From a virus (Duplodnaviria > Heunggongvirae > Uroviricota > Caudoviricetes): a stretch of DNA of 64,000 nucleotides. Location of the stretch: positions 1 to 64,000 of the IMG/VR virus record IMGVR_UViG_3300031555_003801. One strand, 5' to 3'. Shown here in pieces: positions 134 through 43,160 of this stretch. The first letter of the stretch is position 1, and each line of letters starts with the position of its first letter. The position numbers and the translations under genes are program-made. The notes under the pieces were generated by a model. That model saw nothing but the letters and a program-made list of their open reading frames with translations. It was not told the DNA's origin and made no database searches.

Positions 134-943
134 ATGAATAATAAATATGCTTATGCAACAGCGATAACAAATGATAATTATATTCCTTGTATAATTTTAA
201 ATAAAAGAATAATGGATTATTTAAAATGTAAATATCCTTTTATTGTCTTAATAGCTGGAGAAGTTACAGAACAAGGAATTAAACAAATGAAAGATTTTGG
301 AATTATTGTTTAGAAAACTGAATTATTTTCTTTATATGATAGAAATTCAAATCATAAATATGCAAGTTTTCATTTTTCTCCGATATCTTTAATAGAATAT
401 GATTTATTAATGATATTTGAAGCTGATGTTGTTTTATTAAATAATATTGAAAATAAATTTGATTTTTATTATAATCAATTAACATTGGCATAGCATGATT
501 TTTTATTTCCTCCAAATAATTTATTAGAATATAATTGTAAAAAAAATAAAATATTTCAAGATTTTGAAACTTTTGTCTTTTTTTGCAAACCAAATATCAA
601 TAATTATAATAAAATTATACAATTACATAATTATAAAATAAATAATAAAACAAATATAATTTCAGATCATGATATTATGAGAGTTTTATTTTATCATAAT
701 ATAAATTATAAAATAAAAATTTTAAAAAGTTTACAATAGTTCCATTTTGTTGGCACTCCTAAAATTTGGAATTCTTTTAATCAAATAAAAATTATAAAAA
801 ATATTTTTTATAATTATAATTTGGAAATAGATTATATTTATAATTTTTTAATAAATAATATTACTAAAATAAAGCAATTATTTATTTATGATTATACCTC
901 TTTTATAAAAAATTTTTATTTATTGGGAGAAAAATATGAATAA
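134..943 (+). CDS. Glycosyltransferase family 8 (glycogenin/LPS glucosyltransferase-like) protein, read through 3 in-frame TAG codons (311, 491, 737)
   Basis: Manual translation: N-terminal AYATAITNDNYIPCIIL (GT8-like) and DxD-type motif IFEADVVLL. A continuous 269-codon frame exists only if TAG is sense. RBS-like AAGGAAA sits upstream. Confidence 0.55.
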
Positions 944-1712
944 TTATGCTTATTGTACTATAGTAACAGATAAAAAATATATTCCTTATATTATTAGAAC
1001 GTAGCAAAGATTAAAATATCTTCAATCAAAATATCCTTTTATTATTTTAATAACAGAAAATATTTATAATAAATATAAGAATATAATAGAAAAAAATAAT
1101 ATTATATATAAAATTATTGATTCTTTATCTTTTGAAATTGAAGATAAACATTATAAAGATACTTTAAATAAATTTCAGATTTTAAATTTAATAGAATATG
1201 AAATTGTTTTATTTCTAGATGCAGATATTATTATTTATAATAATATAGATAATGTTTTTAAAGAATATAATTTTTCAAAAAATAAACCTTTTTATTTATT
1301 TTGTAAAAATTTTAAACAAAAAATAATTCCAGGTGTTTATGGAGCTTATTTTTTCTGTCGACCCAATAAAGAACTTTATAATAAATATATATTAAACAAT
1401 AATATAATAAAAAATATAGAAAATGATTAGGCTTTTTTAAATATTTACTTTTATAACTGTTTATCAAATATAAAATCTGATGATACTATTATTCATAAAA
1501 ATTGTATTCATTTTGCAGGACAATTGAAATTAGCAGATTTATAGTTTTTTTCATTTTTTAAAAATTTTTTTATTGACTGGGAAGAAAAAACATTTAATTC
1601 TTTTTTAGATGATGAAAAAAATATTGATAATTTACAAAAATTAATAATTATTGCTGTACAAACTGAAAAAGAATTAAATAAAATAATAAAAAAAATAAAT
1701 TATAAATTTTAA
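936..1712 (+). CDS. GT8 glycosyltransferase paralog, 3 in-frame TAG codons (1002, 1428, 1542)
   Basis: Codon-by-codon translation from ATG 936 to TAA 1710-1712. Motifs AYCTIVTDKKYIPYII and LFLDADIIIY (DxD). It is a tandem paralog of 134..943 and overlaps its stop. Confidence 0.55.
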
Positions 1713-7971: not shown

Positions 7972-8098
7972 GTTTTGATTTATTCTGTTACTTAAATTGA
8001 GCGGATGTAGCCGAATTGGTATAGATACATGATTCTAGAGATTTGAATTATTTTACCTATAAATAATAATATTATTAGTTTAAAAGAATATAAATAAA

Positions 8099-8947
8099 AT
8101 GGAATTAATTGATTTTACAAAAGAGATAAATAATGCTTAGTTATTTGTAGGTTCTGGTAAAAAGAAAAAATTATTAATTAATTATAACAATGAATAGTAT
8201 ATAATTAAATTTGCTAAAAATATATGTACAAATAATCAAGGTATTATTACAAATTAGAGAGGCTTTTCAGAATATTTAGCTTGTCAAATTTATCAAAATG
8301 CAGAATTTTTTGTTTAGGAAACTTTATTAGGTTATTATAAAAATAAAAATAATATTTTAACTGCTTGTAAACTTGCAAATAATAAAATTACAGATTTTAG
8401 TTTTTTTATGGAAAAATATGATTATAAAGTAAGTAATAAATTAAATGATATTTTATTAGTTTGTAAATATATTAATATAGAAGAATACTTTTGGGATATG
8501 TTTATTATAGATGCTTTTATTGGTAATACAGATCGTAATACTGGTAATTGGGGATTATTTTATAATGAAAAATTAGATAAAATATTAAGCGTTCCTTTTA
8601 TTTTTGACTGTGAAAATAGTTTTTATCCCAATATGAATGATTATATTTTATAGAATTATTGTCAAAAAGAATTAAAAGAAATAGCTTATAATTATCCAGA
8701 ATCAAAAATAATTTATAATAATAAAAATATAAATTATTTTAATTTTATTTCTTCTTTAGAGAATGAAGATTGTAATGAAGCTTTAAAAAGAATTGTTCCT
8801 AAAATTGATATAGAAAAAATTATTTAGATTATAAATGATCTTCCACTTGAAAAAATATAGAAAAATTTTTTAATAACAATTCTTCAAAAAAGAAAAGAAT
8901 TATTAAATCTTGTTTTAATAAAACTTAATGAAAGAGAAAACCAATGA
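8099..8947 (+). CDS. HipA-like (HipA/CtkA kinase family, divergent catalytic motif) protein with 7 in-frame TAG codons
   Basis: VGSGKKKKL (P-loop-like) and FIIDAFIGNTDRNTGNWG (HipA C-terminal motif region, with D-R-N in place of D-x-H). Same frame as ORF-track fragment 8408..8653. Overlaps the E1 start (ATGA). Confidence 0.5.
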
Positions 8948-9678: not shown

Positions 9679-9759
9679 GGGGACATAGCTCAGTTGGTGA
9701 GAGCGCAGAGCTTATACCTCTGGAATCTGTCGAAGGTTCAAGTCCTTCTGTCCCTACCA
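9679..9759 (+). tRNA. tRNA-Ile (anticodon TAT), 9-nt variable loop
   Basis: Acceptor ggggaca/tgtccct. D arm gctc-agttggtga-gagc. Anticodon arm cagag-ctTATac-ctctg. T arm gaagg-ttcaagt-ccttc. CCA present. Confidence 0.55.
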
Positions 9760-10463: not shown

Positions 10464-10813
10464 CGGGGCTGAAAATGGTTTCGACAGGGTTGTGAAAAAT
10501 TTTAAATCCGCAGGTGTGATTTACCTTACAAATCAAACTTAAATATAAACGCAAAACCTTATAGATTAGCTGCCTAATTAATTGGTAGGCCTAAACGACA
10601 TGCTTGTTGTTCAGCTAAATGTCTGCGGCTCGAGGAATAGAACAATCACCCCAAAGTTTCTTAATTCTTTTTCAAAAATTAAGTGGTGGATACGATGTTT
10701 GTAAAGTGTCTTTACAAAACCCTGAGTTGGTTATCTCTAAAATAACCTATTGCGTAAGTATGATTTAAAATTAGTAACAGTTTTGGACGCGAGTTCGACT
10801 CTCGCCAGCTCCA
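10464..10813 (+). ncRNA. ssrA: tmRNA (ssrA-like transfer-messenger RNA)
   Basis: 5' end GGGGCTGAAAATGGTTTCGACAGGG (tmRNA tRNA-like domain). 3' end ggacgcgag-ttcgact-ctcgc-cagctcc-a (T arm + acceptor pairing with GGGGCTG). Internal tag-like reading frame GCA AAA CCT TAT AGA TTA GCT GCC TAA (…AKPYRLAA*) ending in the typical LAA + TAA. Confidence 0.65.
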
Positions 10814-11052: not shown

Positions 11053-11061
11053 AGTATTAAA

Positions 11062-11151
11062 GCTCCGTAGTCTAATGGTAAAACGCCGGACTCTAAATCC
11101 GTTATACTCTCTGAAAGGGTAATCTGGGTTCGAATCCCAGCGGGGCCGCCA
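11062..11151 (+). tRNA. Amber suppressor tRNA (anticodon CTA, reads UAG), class II with long variable arm
   Basis: Anticodon arm (c)cgga-ctCTAaa-tccg(t) with U33 and A37. Variable stem tactct/agggta. T arm ctggg-ttcgaat-cccag. Acceptor agctccg/cggggcc (1 A-C at 1-72) + g + CCA. The D arm is irregular. Confidence 0.6.
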
Positions 11152-11230: not shown

Positions 11231-11264
11231 AAACTATGATAAAAAATAAAAAAGGATAAAATAT

Positions 11265-12230
11265 ATGGAATTAATTGACTTTACGAAAGCAATAAATAAT
11301 GCTTAGTTATTTAAACCTACTGGTAACAATAAAAAAAAATTAAAAATTATTTATAATAATGAAGAATATATAATAAAAACTTCAAAATATACAATTGAAC
11401 AAGATAAAGAAAATAAATATAAAATGATTGAATTGTATAATACAATATCGGAATATTTAGGTTGTAAAATTTATGATAGTTTAAATATACCTGCACAAAA
11501 AACTTTATTAGGATATTATTAGTATAAAAATAAAAAACAAATGATAATTGCTTGTAAAAATTTTAATATTGATGATAGTTTTCTTCCTTTTGGTATATTC
11601 TTTAATAAAGAACGACAACAAGATAATAATAAATTGCAATCTTTAGAAATAAAAAATATTATAAAAAAAATTGAAGAACAAAATATTTATGATTCTCAAA
11701 AAATAAAAAAACGTTTTTGGGATATGTTTATTATTGATGCTTTTATTGATAATCCCGATAGAACTTCTGGAAACTGGGGTTTTATAAAAGATAAAAAAAC
11801 AAATACAATCATAAATTTTTGTCCAATTTTTGATTGTGAATAGAACATATTTTTAGAAATACTATTAAAAAATAAAAAACAATTATTAAATAATTAGAAT
11901 AAAATAAATTTTTTAGCTATATCGCCTTTTAAAAAATCTTATTTAATTTATGATAATAAAGTTATAAATTATTTTAATTTTATTTCCTCTTTAGAAAATG
12001 AAGATTGTAATGAAGCTTTAAAAAGAATTGTTCCTAAAATTGATATGGAAAAAATTATTTAGATTATAAATGATCTTCCACTTGAAGAATTCCAAAAAAA
12101 TAATTTAATAATAGTATTAAAAAAAAGAAAAGAATTATTATTAGATTTTCCTTTATTTCTCTTACAAAATATAGATAAAAGAGAAAAATACGAAAAAAAA
12201 ATAGAAAGGATAATATATGATAAATTATAA
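11265..12230 (+). CDS. HipA-like paralog with 5 in-frame TAG codons
   Basis: MELIDFTKAINNA*... FIIDAFIDNPDRTSGNWG. Same frame as ORF-track fragment 11541..11843. Its C-terminal ~125 bp is a near-exact direct repeat of the 3' end of 8099..8947. Stop TAA at 12228-12230 overlaps the ycaO start. Confidence 0.5.
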
Positions 12231-14153: not shown

Positions 14154-15710
14154 ATGAATAAGTTTTTAAATGGATTAACTGATGCAACTAACTTCACTTA
14201 CACTGAAAATGGTGCTATTACCCATAAAACTACTAAGTCTGCTCTGTTAGATATGTTCGCACTTGGTGGAGCATATAGAACTAGAAGTGACGCAGAAGTA
14301 ATCACCTTATTTAAGAACGCATATGAGGAAAATCCTGTTTATGCGTTAAAGTGCCTGTTCTATCTGCGCGACGTGCGTGGCGGACAGGGTGAAAGAAGAT
14401 TTTTCAAAACTGCAATGAAGTGGTTTGCTAATGCTGATGTAGAAGCAGCAAGAAGAAATTTCAAGCATATTCCAGAGTTTGGTAGATGGGATGATTTATA
14501 TCTTTTCATTAATACGCCTCTTGAAAATGAAATGTTCCAGTTTATGAAGGAACAGTTAGCACTCGATATGCAGTGCAAAACACCTTCTCTGTTAGCAAAG
14601 TGGTTAAAGTCTGAAAATACATCTTCTATGGAATCCAGATATCTGGCTAAGAAGACTCGTCAGTATTTTGGCATGACCGCAAAGCAGTATAGAAAGACAT
14701 TATCTATCCTCCGTGAAAGAATTAATGTTCTTGAAAGATTAATGTCTGCAGGTAAGTGGGATGAAATCGAGTTCGATAAGATTCCTTCTAAGGCAGGTTT
14801 AATTTATAAGAATGCTTTTGCTAGACACGATATCGAAAGAATGAAGACTGAAAAGGCTGTAGTATCTTATGCGGATTTCGCTAAGGATGTAACTACAACT
14901 GTAAATGCTAAGGCATTATATCCATATGAAGTAGTAGCTAAGGCTATTGATTTAATGGGATATAATGGTGGTTGGTTCCGTAGCACTCATGATGTTCCAT
15001 TAGATAATACTGATAGACTTATGATTAATAAATATTGGAATAATCTCGCTGATTATATCCAGGGTGCTAATTTTAATGGAATTGCAGTGGTAGATACTTC
15101 TGGTTCTATGACTGGTTCTTTTGCTAGTGCACCAATTAATGTAGCTGTTTCTCTTGGCATGTATTGTGCTGAAAAAAATAATGGTCCATTCAAAGATCAC
15201 TTCATTACATTTGAATCTAATCCTCATTTAATTAAGGTTGAAGGCGTAGACTTTTGCGAAAAGGTTTATAATATTACTGGCGCAGACTGGGGTGGTTCTA
15301 CAAATATTGAAGCAGTGTTTGACTTATTATTAGATACTGCTATCAGAAATAATTGTTCTCAGGATGAAATTCCACAGAATGTAATTGTTATTTCTGATAT
15401 GGAGTTTAACTCTTGTGTAACTTTTAATAGCTTACTTGCAAGAAGATATTATAATGAACCTATGTTTAATACTGAAACTTTATTCGAAACCATGGAACGC
15501 AAATGGAATAGAGCAGGATATCAGATGCCTGCAATTACATTCTGGAATGTTCAGGCAAGACAGAATAATATTCCAATGAAGACTGAAGGTAGAGTAAATT
15601 ATGTATCTGGTATGTCTCCAGTAATCTATGAACAGGTTATGAAAGGTTTAAGTGCTTACGATCTGATGATGGATAAGTTAGATAATGAAAGATATAGCGT
15701 AATTTGCTAA
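14154..15710 (+). CDS. vWA (MIDAS) domain protein with large N-terminal helical domain (Ro60/TROVE-like architecture possible)
   Basis: MIDAS motif VVDTSGSMTG. 518 aa. Clearly higher GC and different codon usage than flanking phage genes. Confidence 0.55.
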   Translation: MNKFLNGLTDATNFTYTENGAITHKTTKSALLDMFALGGAYRTRSDAEVITLFKNAYEENPVYALKCLFYLRDVRGGQGERRFFKTAMKWFANADVEAARRNFKHIPEFGRWDDLYLFINTPLENEMFQFMKEQLALDMQCKTPSLLAKWLKSENTSSMESRYLAKKTRQYFGMTAKQYRKTLSILRERINVLERLMSAGKWDEIEFDKIPSKAGLIYKNAFARHDIERMKTEKAVVSYADFAKDVTTTVNAKALYPYEVVAKAIDLMGYNGGWFRSTHDVPLDNTDRLMINKYWNNLADYIQGANFNGIAVVDTSGSMTGSFASAPINVAVSLGMYCAEKNNGPFKDHFITFESNPHLIKVEGVDFCEKVYNITGADWGGSTNIEAVFDLLLDTAIRNNCSQDEIPQNVIVISDMEFNSCVTFNSLLARRYYNEPMFNTETLFETMERKWNRAGYQMPAITFWNVQARQNNIPMKTEGRVNYVSGMSPVIYEQVMKGLSAYDLMMDKLDNERYSVIC

Positions 15711-26602: not shown

Positions 26603-27994
26603 ATGGAAAAAATTATTGGTATTCTTGCGGCCGGCGTTCCGGTATTAGCAGTTATCGTCCTCGTAGCTCTTGTAGTAGTCTTTGGTTATGTAAAGGCACC
26701 GCCTGATGTTGCCTACATTATTTCCGGAGTAAGAAAAAATCAACGAATCCTCGTTGGTAAGGCTGGCATTAAGATTCCATTCTTTGAAAGACTTGATAAG
26801 TTAGCTCTTGGCGCAATTCAGATTGATGTAAAGACTGGTTCTTCTGTTCCAACAGCAGAATATATCAATGTTAGAATTGACTCTACTGTATCTGTAAGAG
26901 TAAGCCAGGATCCAGCGCTGATGAAGATTGCAGCTCAGAACTTCTTGAATGTGCCACGTGAAGAAATTGCGCGTAAGGTAAATGATTTACTGGAAGGTAA
27001 TATCCGTGAAATCGCAGGTTCTATGAAGCTTACTGAAATGGTTAGCGATAGAAAGAAATTTAGCGAACAGGTTCAGGAAAATGCTGTTCCAGACTTACAG
27101 AGATTTGGTCTTGAATTAGTTTCTTTCAATGTTCAGAACTTCGTCGATGACAATGATGTGATTACTAACTTAGGTATTGACAATGTAGAACAGATTAGAA
27201 AGGCAGCTATGATTGCTAAGTCTAATGCACAGAGAGAAGTTGCTATCGCAGAAGCAGAAAATGCTAAGCAGGCAAATGATGCTAAGGTTAAGGCAGCCGA
27301 AGAAATTGCTGTAAGAAATAATGACCTGGCTATTAAGAAAGCTCAGCTTCAGAAGATTTCTGATACTGAACAGGCTCAGGCAGATGCAGCAGCTGGTATC
27401 GAAGCAGAAAATCAGCGTAAAGTAATGGAAGTTGCGGCAGCAAATGCTAACATTGCTAAGGCTGAAAGAGAAACTGAATTAAAGAGACAGCAGATTGAAT
27501 TAAAAGAAAGAGAACTGGATGCTCTGGTTCGTAAGCAGGCAGATGCTGAAAAGTATGCCGCTGAAAAGAAAGCAGAAGCAGAATTAATTACTCGTCAGAA
27601 GAAAGCAGAAGCTGAACGCTATGAAAAGGAACAGGAAGCAGAAGCTATGAAGGCTCAGGCTGATGCAGCTAAATATGCGGCAATGGCTGAAGCAGAAGGT
27701 ATTGCGGCCAAAGGTCGTGCGGAAGCAGAAGCTATTGAAAAGAAGGCAGAAGCTCAGAAGTTAATGGGTGAAGCATCTGTAGTAGATATGATTCTTCAGA
27801 CATTACCAGAAATGACTGCCGCAGCTGCTGCTCCACTTGCCAATGTAGATACTATGAACCTCTATGGTGAAGGTAATGGAGGTAAAGTTGTTGGCGATGT
27901 AATGAAGATTACTAATCAGGTAATGGAAGGTCTCGCTGCTAATGGTATCAATGTAATTGATATTATTAATAAAGCAATGGAACGCAATAGATAA
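26603..27994 (+). CDS. Flotillin/SPFH (band 7) family protein
   Basis: N-terminal TM segment, SPFH domain, long Ala/Glu/Lys-rich coiled coil (KAEAE repeats). GC-richer than the backbone. Confidence 0.8.
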   Translation: MEKIIGILAAGVPVLAVIVLVALVVVFGYVKAPPDVAYIISGVRKNQRILVGKAGIKIPFFERLDKLALGAIQIDVKTGSSVPTAEYINVRIDSTVSVRVSQDPALMKIAAQNFLNVPREEIARKVNDLLEGNIREIAGSMKLTEMVSDRKKFSEQVQENAVPDLQRFGLELVSFNVQNFVDDNDVITNLGIDNVEQIRKAAMIAKSNAQREVAIAEAENAKQANDAKVKAAEEIAVRNNDLAIKKAQLQKISDTEQAQADAAAGIEAENQRKVMEVAAANANIAKAERETELKRQQIELKERELDALVRKQADAEKYAAEKKAEAELITRQKKAEAERYEKEQEAEAMKAQADAAKYAAMAEAEGIAAKGRAEAEAIEKKAEAQKLMGEASVVDMILQTLPEMTAAAAAPLANVDTMNLYGEGNGGKVVGDVMKITNQVMEGLAANGINVIDIINKAMERNR

Positions 27995-30300: not shown

Positions 30301-31560
30301 ATGAAGATATACAAATTTTATGATACTTGCAGTCTATTAATCAAGGCAGATGCTTTATTTAAAGATGAACAAGATACCATAGTTATTTCTTCAATAAGCT
30401 TAGAAGAGTTAGAAAACATTAAAACCTCTGGCTCTAAGGATGAAGATACTAAGATGCGTGCTAGACATTTATTGCGCGTTCTTGATGAAAATCCTGACAA
30501 GTATGAAATTTGGATCTTTAAAGAACCAATGTTGAAGCCTATTGAGGAAAAGGGTTTTAGCATCTCAAATGATATGAGAATCCTTGCTAGCGCAATTGAT
30601 TATGATAATACTTGCCATCCAGATGAAACAGTATTTATAACCAATGATTTATTATTAAAACATATTGCTAATTTATTTTTTGGTGAAGATTCTGTTGGTA
30701 GTATAGAAGAAAATATTGATGATGGATATACTGGCTTCAAGGAAGTATATTTATCTAATGAAGAAATGGCCTAGTTTTATTAGAATATAAACTAGAATAT
30801 TTTTAATTTGCATATAAATTAGTATTTATTTATTTATAATCAATAGAAATAGCATGTAGATACTGTCTGCTGGGATGGTGAAACACATCGTAGTGTAATA
30901 TATCATTCATTTAAATCTGAATGGTTTGGTGAAGTCAAACCATATAAACATGATATTTATCAAGTCATTTTGGCAGATAGTTTATGTAATAATCAAATAA
31001 CCATGGTAAAGGGGCCTGCGGGCACAGGTAAAACATTCCTTTCTCTTGGTTATTTAATGCATTTATTAGAAAAAGGTAAAATTGATAAGATTATTGTTTT
31101 TTGTAATACCGTAGCTACCAAAAATTCTGCTAAGCTGGGGTATTATCCAGGAACTAGAAATGAAAAGCTTCTGGATTCACAAATTGGTAATCTACTAATT
31201 AGTAAGTTAGGAGACAGATATGCGGTTGAAGATTTAATTGAAACCGGAAAATTAGTTTTATTACCTTTATCTGATATTAGAGGCTATGATACTTCTGGAA
31301 TGAATGCAGGTATTTATATCTCAGAAGCGCAAAATATGGATATTTCATTAATGAAATTAACATTACAGAGAATCGGAGAAGATAGTGTTTGTATCATTGA
31401 TGGTGATTGTAAAACTTAGGTAGATGATATGAGTTTTGCGGGTCGCAATAATGGTATGCGTAGAGTTTCAAAAGTATTTAGAGGACAAGATGTGTATGGA
31501 GAAGTTGAACTTCAAATTATACATCGTTCAAAAATAGCACAAATTGCGGAGCAGTTATAA
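30301..31560 (+). CDS. PhoH-like protein (N-terminal PIN domain + PhoH P-loop ATPase) read through 8 in-frame TAG codons, 7 of them clustered in the interdomain linker
   Basis: PIN-like FYDTCSLL, SLEEL, ITNDLLL. ATPase motifs GPAGTGKT and IIDGDCKT*VDD...GEVELQIIHRSKIAQIAEQL. ORF-track pieces 30301..30774 and 30970..31419 are in the same frame and are joined by TAG-containing sequence. Confidence 0.65.
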
Positions 31561-31577
31561 AAACTGCTCCTTTTTTA
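31546..31577 (+). terminator. Rho-independent terminator
   Basis: gcggagcagtt-ataaaa-actgctcc + tttttt. Confidence 0.65.
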
Positions 31578-32342
31578 TTGAAAAGAAAGGGGTTGAATAT
31601 TTTGGCATCTAAAACTACAGCTAAGCAAGTCCTTGCCGCAGCAAAAGGTGAAATTAGAGAAAAGAAATATGGAAAGCCTAATAAGTATAGCAGATGGTAT
31701 TATGGGAATGAAACCAAAGCTGCTTGGTGCGGGATTTTTGTTAAATATGTAATTGAAAAATTATGTGGGGATAAAGAACTTCTTGCCGGATGTTCTAATT
31801 TCGCATATGTTCCTACCATTCATGAATGGGCAAAGAAAAAAGGTTATGTAAAATATTCTCCAGAACCAGGAGATTTAGTAATCTTTGACTGGAAATGCGG
31901 AAATGGTATTCCTGAAAGAGACCATGTAGGTTTCTGTGTAAAAGATAATAAAAATGGAACTATTACTACATATGAAGGAAATACTTCTTCTGTCTCTAAT
32001 GGTAATGGAGATTGCGTTCAATAGAGAATAAGAGATAAAAAATTTGTTCTTTGCTACATAAGACTTCCATATAAAAAATCTAAAACTACAGCAAAAAAGA
32101 AAACAAAATATACTGGTGAATTTCCTACTGCATTAGTAAGTGTTGAAAAAGGAACTAAAACTAATATTAAAAGATGGTAGAAATTCCTTAACTGGGCACT
32201 TGACGCGGGACTTACTGTTGATGGTATTTTCGGCACAATGTCTATGAAAGCTACAAAAGAGTTCCAAAGAACTGTTGGAATTGCGGACGATGGTATCGCT
32301 GGAACTAATACTATAACAAAGGCGAAAAAATATGAAAAATAA
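31578..32342 (+). CDS. Endolysin: CHAP-domain peptidase + C-terminal peptidoglycan-binding (PG_binding_1-like) domain, 2 in-frame TAG codons (32022, 32178)
   Basis: CHAP Cys/His motifs (AWCGIFV, HVGF). C-terminal LNWALDAGLTVDGIFGTMSMKATKEFQRTVGIADDGIAG reached only through the TAGs. Confidence 0.7.
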
Positions 32343-42201: not shown

Positions 42202-42209
42202 AAGTAATT

Positions 42210-43160
42210 ATGGATATAATAATATATAGTTTAATTGGTGTCTTAACTGGTGGTATTATAATTTATTTTATAATGCGATCAAAAGTAAAACAAAGAGTTT
42301 TTTTAGATACCGAATTAGAAAAAGAAAATAGTAAATTAAGACAAGAATATGAATTTCTACGTGATGAATATGTCAGAATAAAAGCATAGAGAGAATCTAT
42401 TATAGAAAATTTAGGCATGTTAGAAAAGTAGGCAAGGCAATCTGCTGAAGTTTTTTATCAAAAGAATATGGAGATTGCATAGCAAAATCTTGAAGCATCA
42501 TTAGAAAAGTTTAGTCAAGAAATCCAATAGTCAAAAGATTAGTATGAAGCAGAATATTTAGCAATTATAAAAGATTTAGCAGATAAAGCATAGCTAAAAA
42601 CAGAAGAAGTTAATAAACTTATATCTGATTTAGATAATGAACTAAATGAAAAACAATCTATTGTTAATGCAGCTGTTGAAGCAAGTAAACGAGCAAAAGA
42701 AATGGAAGAATCTAAAGATTTTTATCGTTTATAGCTATCAGATACTGATGTTGATGAAATTGCGCGACTTCGCTCAGTAGTTCCTTATTTGCGAAATGCT
42801 GAACCAATTAATAAAGTTATTTGGAAAGTTTATTATGAAAAACCATATACTGATTTAATTGGTAGAGTTATTGGTTCTGGCGTTCACACCGGCATTTATA
42901 AAATTACTAATATGGAAAATAATATGTGCTATGTTGGTCAAGCCGCTAACTTATCAGAGCGTTGGAGACAACATATTAAGCGTGGTGTCGGCGCAGAAGC
43001 TCCAACCCGCAATAAACTCTACCCAGCTATGGAAGAATTTGGGGTAGAGAATTTTACATTTGAAGTAATTGAAGAGTGCGATAGAGCTAAACTTGATGCG
43101 CAAGAAGATTATTGGCAAGAATATTTTAAAGCAAAAGAATTTGGTTATAGTATAAAATAA
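42210..43160 (+). CDS. Membrane-anchored coiled-coil protein with C-terminal GIY-YIG nuclease domain, 7 in-frame TAG codons
   Basis: N-terminal hydrophobic segment. Coiled coil KA*RESIIENL...EIA*QNLEASLEKFSQEIQ*SKD*YEAEY. C-terminal GIYKITNMENNMCYVGQAANLSERWRQH. The ORF track shows only the last 123 codons (42789..43160). Confidence 0.6.

Follow-up and report, generated by a model that had tools for sequence, protein, structure and literature searches.

A phage PhoH2 gene with TAG codons crowded in its middle domain, probably an instance of ordinary code-15 usage

The reassignment of TAG from a stop to a glutamine codon (genetic code 15) has been described for several clades of gut phages, namely the crAss-like, Lak, Garnet, Amethyst, Jade, Sapphire and Topaz clades (10.1101/2021.08.26.457843, PMC9523058, PMC10607447), with proteomic proof of the assignment in the crAss-like phages only (PMC9523058). 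In recoded clades infecting standard-code hosts TAG is reported to occur in a subset of genes (Borges et al. 10.1101/2021.08.26.457843), and a PhoH family ribonuclease is among the open reading frames (ORFs) whose recoding pattern differs between three related phAss genomes (PMC10607447). The PhoH2 architecture, which joins a PIN nuclease domain to a PhoH ATPase domain, has been described for both bacteria and phages (PMC5499597), and the mycobacterial PhoH2, according to the account of Andrews & Arcus 2015 as cited in PMC5499597, couples ATP-dependent unwinding of RNA to its cleavage. Here we describe a PhoH2 gene with seven in-frame TAG codons, six of them crowded into its middle domain, from a stretch of 64,000 nucleotides (positions 1 to 64,000 of the IMG/VR record IMGVR_UViG_3300031555_003801, Caudoviricetes; henceforth the window). 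Comparison with related sequences suggests that the gene probably represents ordinary code-15 usage, with synthesis of the full-length protein dependent on a suppressor tRNA. The recoding phenomenon itself is known, and the local crowding of TAG alone is peculiar to the lineage of the window.

The best explanation for the window as a whole is that its source is a large code-15 phage with AT-rich DNA (30% GC), one of the gut-metagenome type, and the lineage is probably that of a large phage of a Gram-positive host. As in the described code-15 gut phages, TAG occurs in a subset of genes and aligns with glutamine, the phage encodes a tRNA with the anticodon CUA and has a low GC content, the endolysin and neighboring genes are recoded, and the TAG content varies between close relatives. 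The window differs from those phages in that its relatives are IMG/VR contigs mostly of 60-200 kb (one of 402 kb), the cultured phages with the nearest PhoH2 homologues are those of Bacillus and Geobacillus, its lysin is of the CHAP plus PG_binding_1 type, and its suppressor tRNA bears an extra arm. With the PhoH2 proteins (PIN_4 plus PhoH; COG1875) the window protein shares the PIN-middle-PhoH order, a similar length, the acidic residues of the PIN domain and the Walker A motif, whereas its family differs in having S-E (ISEAQN) throughout at the Walker B position in place of D-E. On those PhoH2 features that can be examined in sequence, it appears to be an ordinary phage PhoH2, for which RNA helicase and RNase activity is assumed from the family.

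Programmed stop read-through, which yields two isoforms as in the case of the Q-beta A1 protein at UGA and the gag-pol protein of murine leukemia virus (MuLV) at UAG, resembles the situation in the window in that a host-code stop separates a shorter from a longer product. The window gene differs in having seven such codons rather than one, in showing no conserved stop position or context across relatives, and in being served by a dedicated cognate tRNA rather than a near-cognate one; furthermore, nothing indicates a functional short product. While programmed read-through would combine a conserved leaky stop with two functional products, the related genes hold from none to eight TAGs each, with many lacking TAG and some bearing it inside the PIN domain, so that the window gene does not fit the pattern of an isoform switch.

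The PhoH2 gene and the assignment of TAG to glutamine

The gene and its parts are as follows.

30301..31560 (+): PhoH2-type gene (PIN, middle beta domain, PhoH ATPase); 419 sense codons including 7 TAG, ending in TAA
30322..30669 (+): PIN_4 nuclease domain, residues 8-123; Pfam PF13638, E=3.4e-13 with TAG masked
30691..30735 (+): likely true flexible interdomain linker, GEDSVGSIEENIDDG, residues ~131-145, judged from the predicted local distance difference test (pLDDT) score; no TAG
30736..30936 (+): middle domain, the "linker" of the initial annotation, residues 146-212; a strand, helix 153-161 and five short strands
30772..30852 (+): TAG cluster, six TAG in 27 codons (81 nt), 12.3% GC
30961..31533 (+): PhoH P-loop ATPase domain, residues 221-411; Pfam PF02562, E=6.7e-27 with TAG masked
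31012-31035 (+): Walker A motif, GPAGTGKT
31417..31419 (+): seventh TAG, codon 373, at the glutamine position of the PhoH GDxxQxD motif
Within residues 148-183, example of a predicted peptide with TAG sites as glutamine: EVYLSNEEMAQFYQNINQNIFNLHINQYLFIYNQQK

A single frame runs from 30301 to the TAA at 31558 without an intervening in-frame TAA or TGA, and its TAGs fall at codons 158, 161, 165, 174, 182, 184 and 373 (nucleotide positions 30772, 30781, 30793, 30820, 30844, 30850 and 31417). A standard-code ORF list splits the gene into fragments of 157 aa and 149 aa. The initial annotation, made from the sequence alone, had placed these fragments (30301..30774 and 30970..31419) in the same frame, which their separation of 669 nt or 223 codons bears out, and had interpreted them as PIN and PhoH domains fused through a TAG-dense linker. 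The fusion agrees with single-chain relatives of ~417 aa, and separate genes for the two domains, which according to that annotation would speak against it, were found in 0 of 86 related loci. Some of its counts need correction. Every in-frame stop is indeed a TAG, but the linker region holds six in the cluster rather than seven, of which five lie within 30775-30969 and the sixth is the very codon that ends the first fragment (30772). The total for the gene is seven and not eight, the string read as Y-N-stop-stop-K-stop-H being Y-N-Q(CAA)-TAG-K-TAG-H. The TAG said to precede the final 47 codons is present at 31417, but it is the seventh rather than the eighth and is followed by 46 sense codons and the TAA.

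More than 4,600 homologues of the PIN-PhoH protein were recovered in a protein search, and the best 120 of these are single proteins of ~377-437 aa, nearly all full length, with 65-91% identity and 89-100% coverage. PhoH2 proteins of cultured standard-code phages (Alicyclobacillus KKP_3916, Geobacillus E3 and Tsamsa-like Bacillus phages) align in one piece over 98-99% of their length at 33-42% identity, and the structure is matched along its whole length by a 411-aa model in BFVD (TM 0.77 over 427 columns). In all 86 related loci there is one uninterrupted gene when TAG is taken as sense, with 0-8 TAGs at varying positions. The window protein is colinear without indels with P0002, a relative 86% identical to it and sharing its numbering, and is likewise colinear with more distant homologues. 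This colinearity and the unbroken frame rule out an intron, intein, frameshift or assembly error. A nucleotide search of the phage collection returned weak PhoH matches alone, in Geobacillus and Alicyclobacillus phages, and no close annotated relative. Sequence and fold searches of the PDB gave a match for the ATPase domain alone (3b85; E=2.3e-17 in the sequence search and TM 0.81 relative to the target in the fold search), with no solved full-length PhoH2 and no solved fold matching the middle domain. The PIN acidic residues D8, E36, E38, D91 and D116 are invariant in the 54 aligned homologues. At the Walker B position (31321-31338, plus strand; residues 341-346) the window protein reads ISEAQN, with serine replacing the usual aspartate (LDEAQN in 3b85), and neither S341 nor E342 varies among the 54 aligned relatives.

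The two fragments seen under the standard code might be taken to represent split genes, with PIN terminated by the TAG at 30772 and a new start for PhoH near 30970, or else a pseudogene that has acquired nonsense mutations, or non-coding sequence. This is extremely improbable: all seven stops are TAG, with no TAA or TGA in 419 codons of 31% GC DNA, the stretch between the fragments translates to conserved sequence that is colinear with P0002 and distant homologues, and no relative carries a split gene. That this 198-nt stretch is coding is indicated by the absence of in-frame TAA and TGA, seen in merely 0.4% of shuffles, when its other two frames contain 3 and 8 of them. Colinearity, unsplit relatives and the shuffle test together refute the split-gene and pseudogene readings. 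The single frame, the seven TAGs and the single-chain homologues thus support the view that PIN and PhoH are parts of one polypeptide whose synthesis would require the decoding of TAG, as the initial annotation had held.

The identity of the inserted residue can be approached through alignment columns, which were surveyed in 84 genes grouped into 43 lineages at 90% identity. The invariant-glutamine columns 221, 294, 344, 356 and 373 hold TAG in 3-6 lineages each. Of these, column 373 belongs to the GDxxQxD motif, which in the window reads GDCKT-TAG-VD with the TAG aligned to the glutamine of GDITQVD in PDB 3b85; glutamine occupies this column in all 37 non-TAG lineages and TAG in the remaining 6. 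The column of TAG174 is otherwise Q or E only. Comparison with the loci L001 (91% identity to the window protein), L002 (86%) and L003 (75%) shows exchange between TAG and CAA/CAG at codons 221, 373 and 418, codon 373 being CAA or CAG in all three loci. Across the genes syntenic with these loci, window TAGs are matched by TAG in 20 cases, by CAG/CAA in 7 and by other codons in 7, making CAG/CAA the commonest class (7/14) when the relative lacks TAG. Thus the marks of code 15 that sequence can provide, namely TAGs aligned with glutamine in conserved genes and a tRNA(CUA) within the window, are both present. They indicate that TAG is a glutamine sense codon rather than a leaky stop, and the proposal that the full-length protein arises through suppression of a leaky stop does not agree with TAGs in invariant-glutamine columns that are exchanged with CAA/CAG.

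The presumed decoder of TAG is the following gene.

11061..11151 (+): suppressor tRNA, anticodon CUA, 91 nt; predicted by ARAGORN, Rfam tRNA 51.2 bits

This tRNA combines a type-I, glutamine-like D arm with an A1xC72 mismatch, G73, an encoded CCA and an extra stem-loop of ~18 nt in the variable region, a class-II-like arm being unusual for a tRNA of the glutamine type. The arm recurs in the same position in 11 of 39 IMG/VR phage tRNA(CUA) genes with the same anticodon stem-loop, these being 88-95 nt long (loci L094, L096, L100, L110, L119, L126, L129, L135, L136, L141 and L142), and the stem sequences of the arm appear to covary in an alignment judged by eye. The L126 tRNA(CUA) shares its contig with the PhoH2 relative L005.

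Given that class-II-like arms are typical of serine, leucine and tyrosine tRNAs, TAG might conceivably be decoded as an amino acid other than glutamine. The 91-nt length, the ~18-nt arm in the variable region and G73 are compatible with this, as are two long phage tRNA(CUA) genes elsewhere with class-II-like long D loops. Nevertheless, we consider such decoding highly unlikely: TAG373 stands in an invariant-glutamine column and TAG174 in a column of Q or E only, close relatives mostly have CAA/CAG opposite TAG, and the D arm is short, type-I and glutamine-like. A weak 1-72 pair together with G73 fits the identity rules of glutaminyl-tRNA synthetase (GlnRS), and the UGGGG...CCCCA acceptor stem of several long-armed relatives resembles that of E. 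coli tRNA-Gln.

Crowding of TAG codons in the middle domain

The segment in which the TAGs are crowded was described in the initial annotation as a low-complexity linker, a description that is contradicted by both its conservation and its predicted structure. In an AlphaFold2 model of P0002, computed with 54 aligned sequences (mean pLDDT 82.6), residues 146-212 form a unit of strand, helix and five strands with pLDDT values of 86-95, and the low-confidence interdomain stretch is limited to residues 138-141 (pLDDT <50; the 131-140 block averages 69), placing the flexible linker at ~131-145 instead. The 54-protein alignment shows no variation at Y160, N166, N173, Y175 and W191, and the mean majority fraction of the middle region (0.57) is close to that of the PIN domain (0.59). 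Hence, the supposed linker is predicted to be a folded, conserved beta domain. In the P0002 model the TAG sites map to helix 153-161, to the loop after it, to the position just before strand 175-179 and to the turn 180-184, and all six clustered TAGs occupy polar, mostly variable positions.

The AT-richness noted for this segment is confirmed, with 24% GC in 30775-30970 and 12.3% in the core (30772-30852) as against 31-33% in the rest of the gene. The same columns in other lineages average 26% GC versus 33% for the rest of the gene, and 11-12% GC is reached in relatives with zero or one TAG. The low GC content is therefore an intrinsic property, on present sequence comparisons, of a segment rich in N, Y, F, I, K, Q and E, found also in relatives without TAG. 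Across the window, segments with a local GC content under 20% have TAG as 24% of their glutamine codons, compared with 4-8% in the remainder (p=0.006 with the PhoH2 gene left out).

Random placement of the TAGs over all codons of the gene would put six of the seven within 27 codons with p=4e-5, and random placement over its 18 glutamine-coding sites with p=0.0025. No description of six TAGs in 27 codons of one domain was found. The distribution of middle-domain TAGs among the window and its relatives is as follows.

L086, 70% identity: no TAG; translates under the standard code
L084, 68% identity: TAG at codons 154 and 174
L003 and L085, 74-75% identity: TAG at codons 161, 174, 182 and 184
Window and L001 (91%): TAG at codons 158, 161, 165, 174, 182 and 184
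L002, 86% identity: TAG at codons 158, 161, 165, 168, 174 and 182; codon 184 is GAG

This series indicates that the cluster is lineage-specific and appears to have been built up stepwise in the lineage of the window. For the clade that carries it, the 90%-identity clusters of the proteins P0001 and P0003 comprise 47 and 154 sequences, respectively. The comparison of linker conservation and TAG positions in relatives, which the initial annotation had proposed as a check, accordingly gives a divided answer, the "linker" being conserved as a domain and the TAG positions being shared by close kin only. Over the 40 other lineages, TAG takes a similar share of glutamine codons in the middle region and in the rest of the gene (13/77 versus 47/418, p=0.18), so that no family-wide preference is seen. 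The TAGs at 161, 174 and 182 are kept in the window, L001, L002, L003 and L085, but preferential retention within the cluster is not significant (0/3 codon switches inside versus 5/8 outside, p=0.18). Since the TAG carriers have diverged little at synonymous positions (16-24% at twofold sites) and have also kept CAA at conserved glutamine columns, the retention of TAG among them needs no special selection.

A mutational ratchet could produce such a pattern. Under AT pressure a sense TAG would arise by one change from GAG, CAG, AAG or TAT, and its sole synonymous exit would be a T>C change against the AT bias, with G>A giving a lethal TAA. As a consequence of this restricted exit, TAGs would persist and pile up where glutamine is tolerated and GC is lowest. 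Production of full-length PhoH2 would then depend on an active suppressor tRNA, which in a standard-code host would mean later in infection; such timing would agree with the late-gene model proposed generally for recoded phages and would require no function specific to the cluster.

Several points weigh against this account. TAG makes up 6 of the 7 glutamine codons of the cluster region in the window (22/26 over four close genomes), and with a binomial p of 0.24 the probability of 6 or more of 7 is ~0.001, above the AT-rich trend. This residual excess implies that the neutral ratchet is not a full account of the TAG density, an objection weakened by the fact that the cluster was chosen as the most striking one in 64 kb. 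The first TAG lies just past the complete PIN domain, as an early PIN-only product would need. The extra arm and the A1xC72 mismatch of the tRNA are unusual. Finally, both glutamine insertion and late timing are predictions for this phage, the latter for a standard-code host.

The initial annotation regarded the TAGs as a tunable element, with graded read-through giving PIN-only, short PIN-PhoH and full-length isoforms. Graded isoforms are implausible, as stops at codons 161-184 would cut inside a folded domain, and a tunable element finds no comparative support, with positions conserved among close relatives only and with relatives lacking TAG altogether (L086 and many IMG/VR loci). These comparisons thus give no support for a dedicated tunable or isoform function. 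A more specific form of the idea is a selected gate, in which seven TAGs, six of them just after the PIN domain, make the full-length yield scale with about the seventh power of suppression efficiency, so that a 157-aa PIN-only RNase would be made early and full PIN-PhoH would appear sharply once the suppressor tRNA accumulates. In favor of a gate, the clustering is supported statistically and is stronger than the AT-related trend, and the first TAG is preceded by both the complete PIN domain and the flexible linker. The TAGs at 161, 174 and 182 are kept in five genomes, when 5 of 8 conserved glutamine columns outside have switched codon. Furthermore, PhoH2 adjoins an endolysin gene with two TAGs, in an order of PhoH2 and lysin conserved in L001, L002, L003 and L086, and gene families near lysis cassettes have been found to prefer TAG over CAA/CAG (Borges et al. 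10.1101/2021.08.26.457843), which also counts for a gate. Against it, however, the retention difference (0/3 versus 5/8) falls short of significance, and at the observed synonymous divergence retention is expected from shared ancestry. Many relatives have zero TAG, or have TAGs inside PIN (codons 25-104) that would destroy any PIN-only product; moreover, the middle region shows no family-wide TAG preference, and truncation at codons 161-184 would fall inside the folded domain. On balance, we regard a selected gate as unlikely. Its fullest version, an ultrasensitive gate that first releases a free 157-aa PIN RNase and then switches to helicase-coupled PIN-PhoH in time with the recoded endolysin, is quite improbable. 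Ordinary code-15 usage, with TAGs accumulating at tolerated sites, remains the preferred reading.

TAG use and other features across the window

Over the whole window there are 45 TAGs in ~17 of 54 plus-strand genes (about a third), amounting to 8% of glutamine codons. Carriers include the CHAP/PG_binding_1 endolysin, a scaffold-like gene, PhoH2 and a GIY-YIG gene, and the genes free of TAG include gyrase A and B and homologues of DNA ligase and Clp protease, the last two being named by synteny with L001. In the GIY-YIG gene (42204-43160, plus strand) the nuclease domain is C-terminal and all seven TAGs lie in the N-terminal half, a coiled coil (codons 61-176), which makes this gene a further case of patchy TAG use. 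An Agate phage has been reported to carry a homing endonuclease with strong recoding (Borges et al. 10.1101/2021.08.26.457843). The most AT-rich coding sequence of the window is found in a pair of adjacent paralogues (116-943 and 909-1712, plus strand; 15-17% GC) with three TAGs each. Two other plus-strand genes, 14154-15710 and 26603-27994, use almost exclusively CAG for glutamine (0 CAA/13 CAG and 1 CAA/24 CAG, respectively), in contrast to the genome-wide CAA bias, and have a higher GC content (35-41%). The latter is Band_7/flotillin-like by synteny with L001 and L002, and both may be highly expressed or recently acquired.

Downstream of the last PhoH domain residues lies one further element.

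31548..31580 (+): hairpin resembling an intrinsic terminator, GGAGCAG...CTGCTCC followed by a T run, overlapping the PhoH2 TAA; pattern match only

The next gene (31578-32342, plus strand) encodes the CHAP plus PG_binding_1 endolysin with its two in-frame TAGs. The order of PhoH2 followed by a lysin is kept in the four relatives named above, with the type of lysin varying between loci (CHAP, Peptidase_C39_2 plus SH3, or Amidase_2 plus SH3). A scan for sigma-70-type promoters in the AT-rich stretch of PhoH2 gave no signal of an internal promoter (14 sites versus 16.2 expected), and a TTGCAT/TATAAT pair spotted by eye was dropped on account of its 21-nt spacer.

The region of the suppressor tRNA holds 21 other tRNA genes and a transfer-messenger RNA (tmRNA). 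The latter (10465-10813, plus strand; Rfam 102.6 bits) has the tag peptide AKPYRLAA and lies ~250 nt upstream of the suppressor tRNA; speculatively, it may handle ribosomes that read past host TAG stops to the ends of mRNAs. An 81-nt tRNA-Ile with the anticodon TAT (9679-9759, plus strand; ARAGORN) is situated beside a second tRNA-Ile(GAT); a tRNA-Ile with a UAU anticodon is rarely seen, and it suits the ATA-heavy codon usage of this AT-rich DNA. A segment of 3.2 kb containing an ORF, four tRNA genes, the tmRNA and the suppressor tRNA is flanked by two paralogues (8084-8947 and 11250-12230, plus strand), which form direct repeats 72-89% identical, have 18% GC and carry 7 and 5 in-frame TAGs, respectively, with one position in common. 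A motif FIIDAFIGNTDRNxGNWG is reminiscent of HipA-type kinases. Pfam searches with the TAG-rich genes 116-943, 909-1712, 8084-8947 and 11250-12230 gave no matches.

In terms of annotation, translation table 11 fragments PhoH2 and about a third of the genes of the window, which need table 15 instead. The known recoded genes now include a PhoH2 gene from a large phage that probably infects a Gram-positive host. The crowding and the stepwise series are a modest curiosity, unsurprising on their own to a specialist. Nevertheless, the within-family series of 0, 2, 4 and 6 TAGs in one domain illustrates the build-up of amber sense codons after recoding, and it could serve to test neutral accumulation against selection as expression gates, a question left open in the literature.

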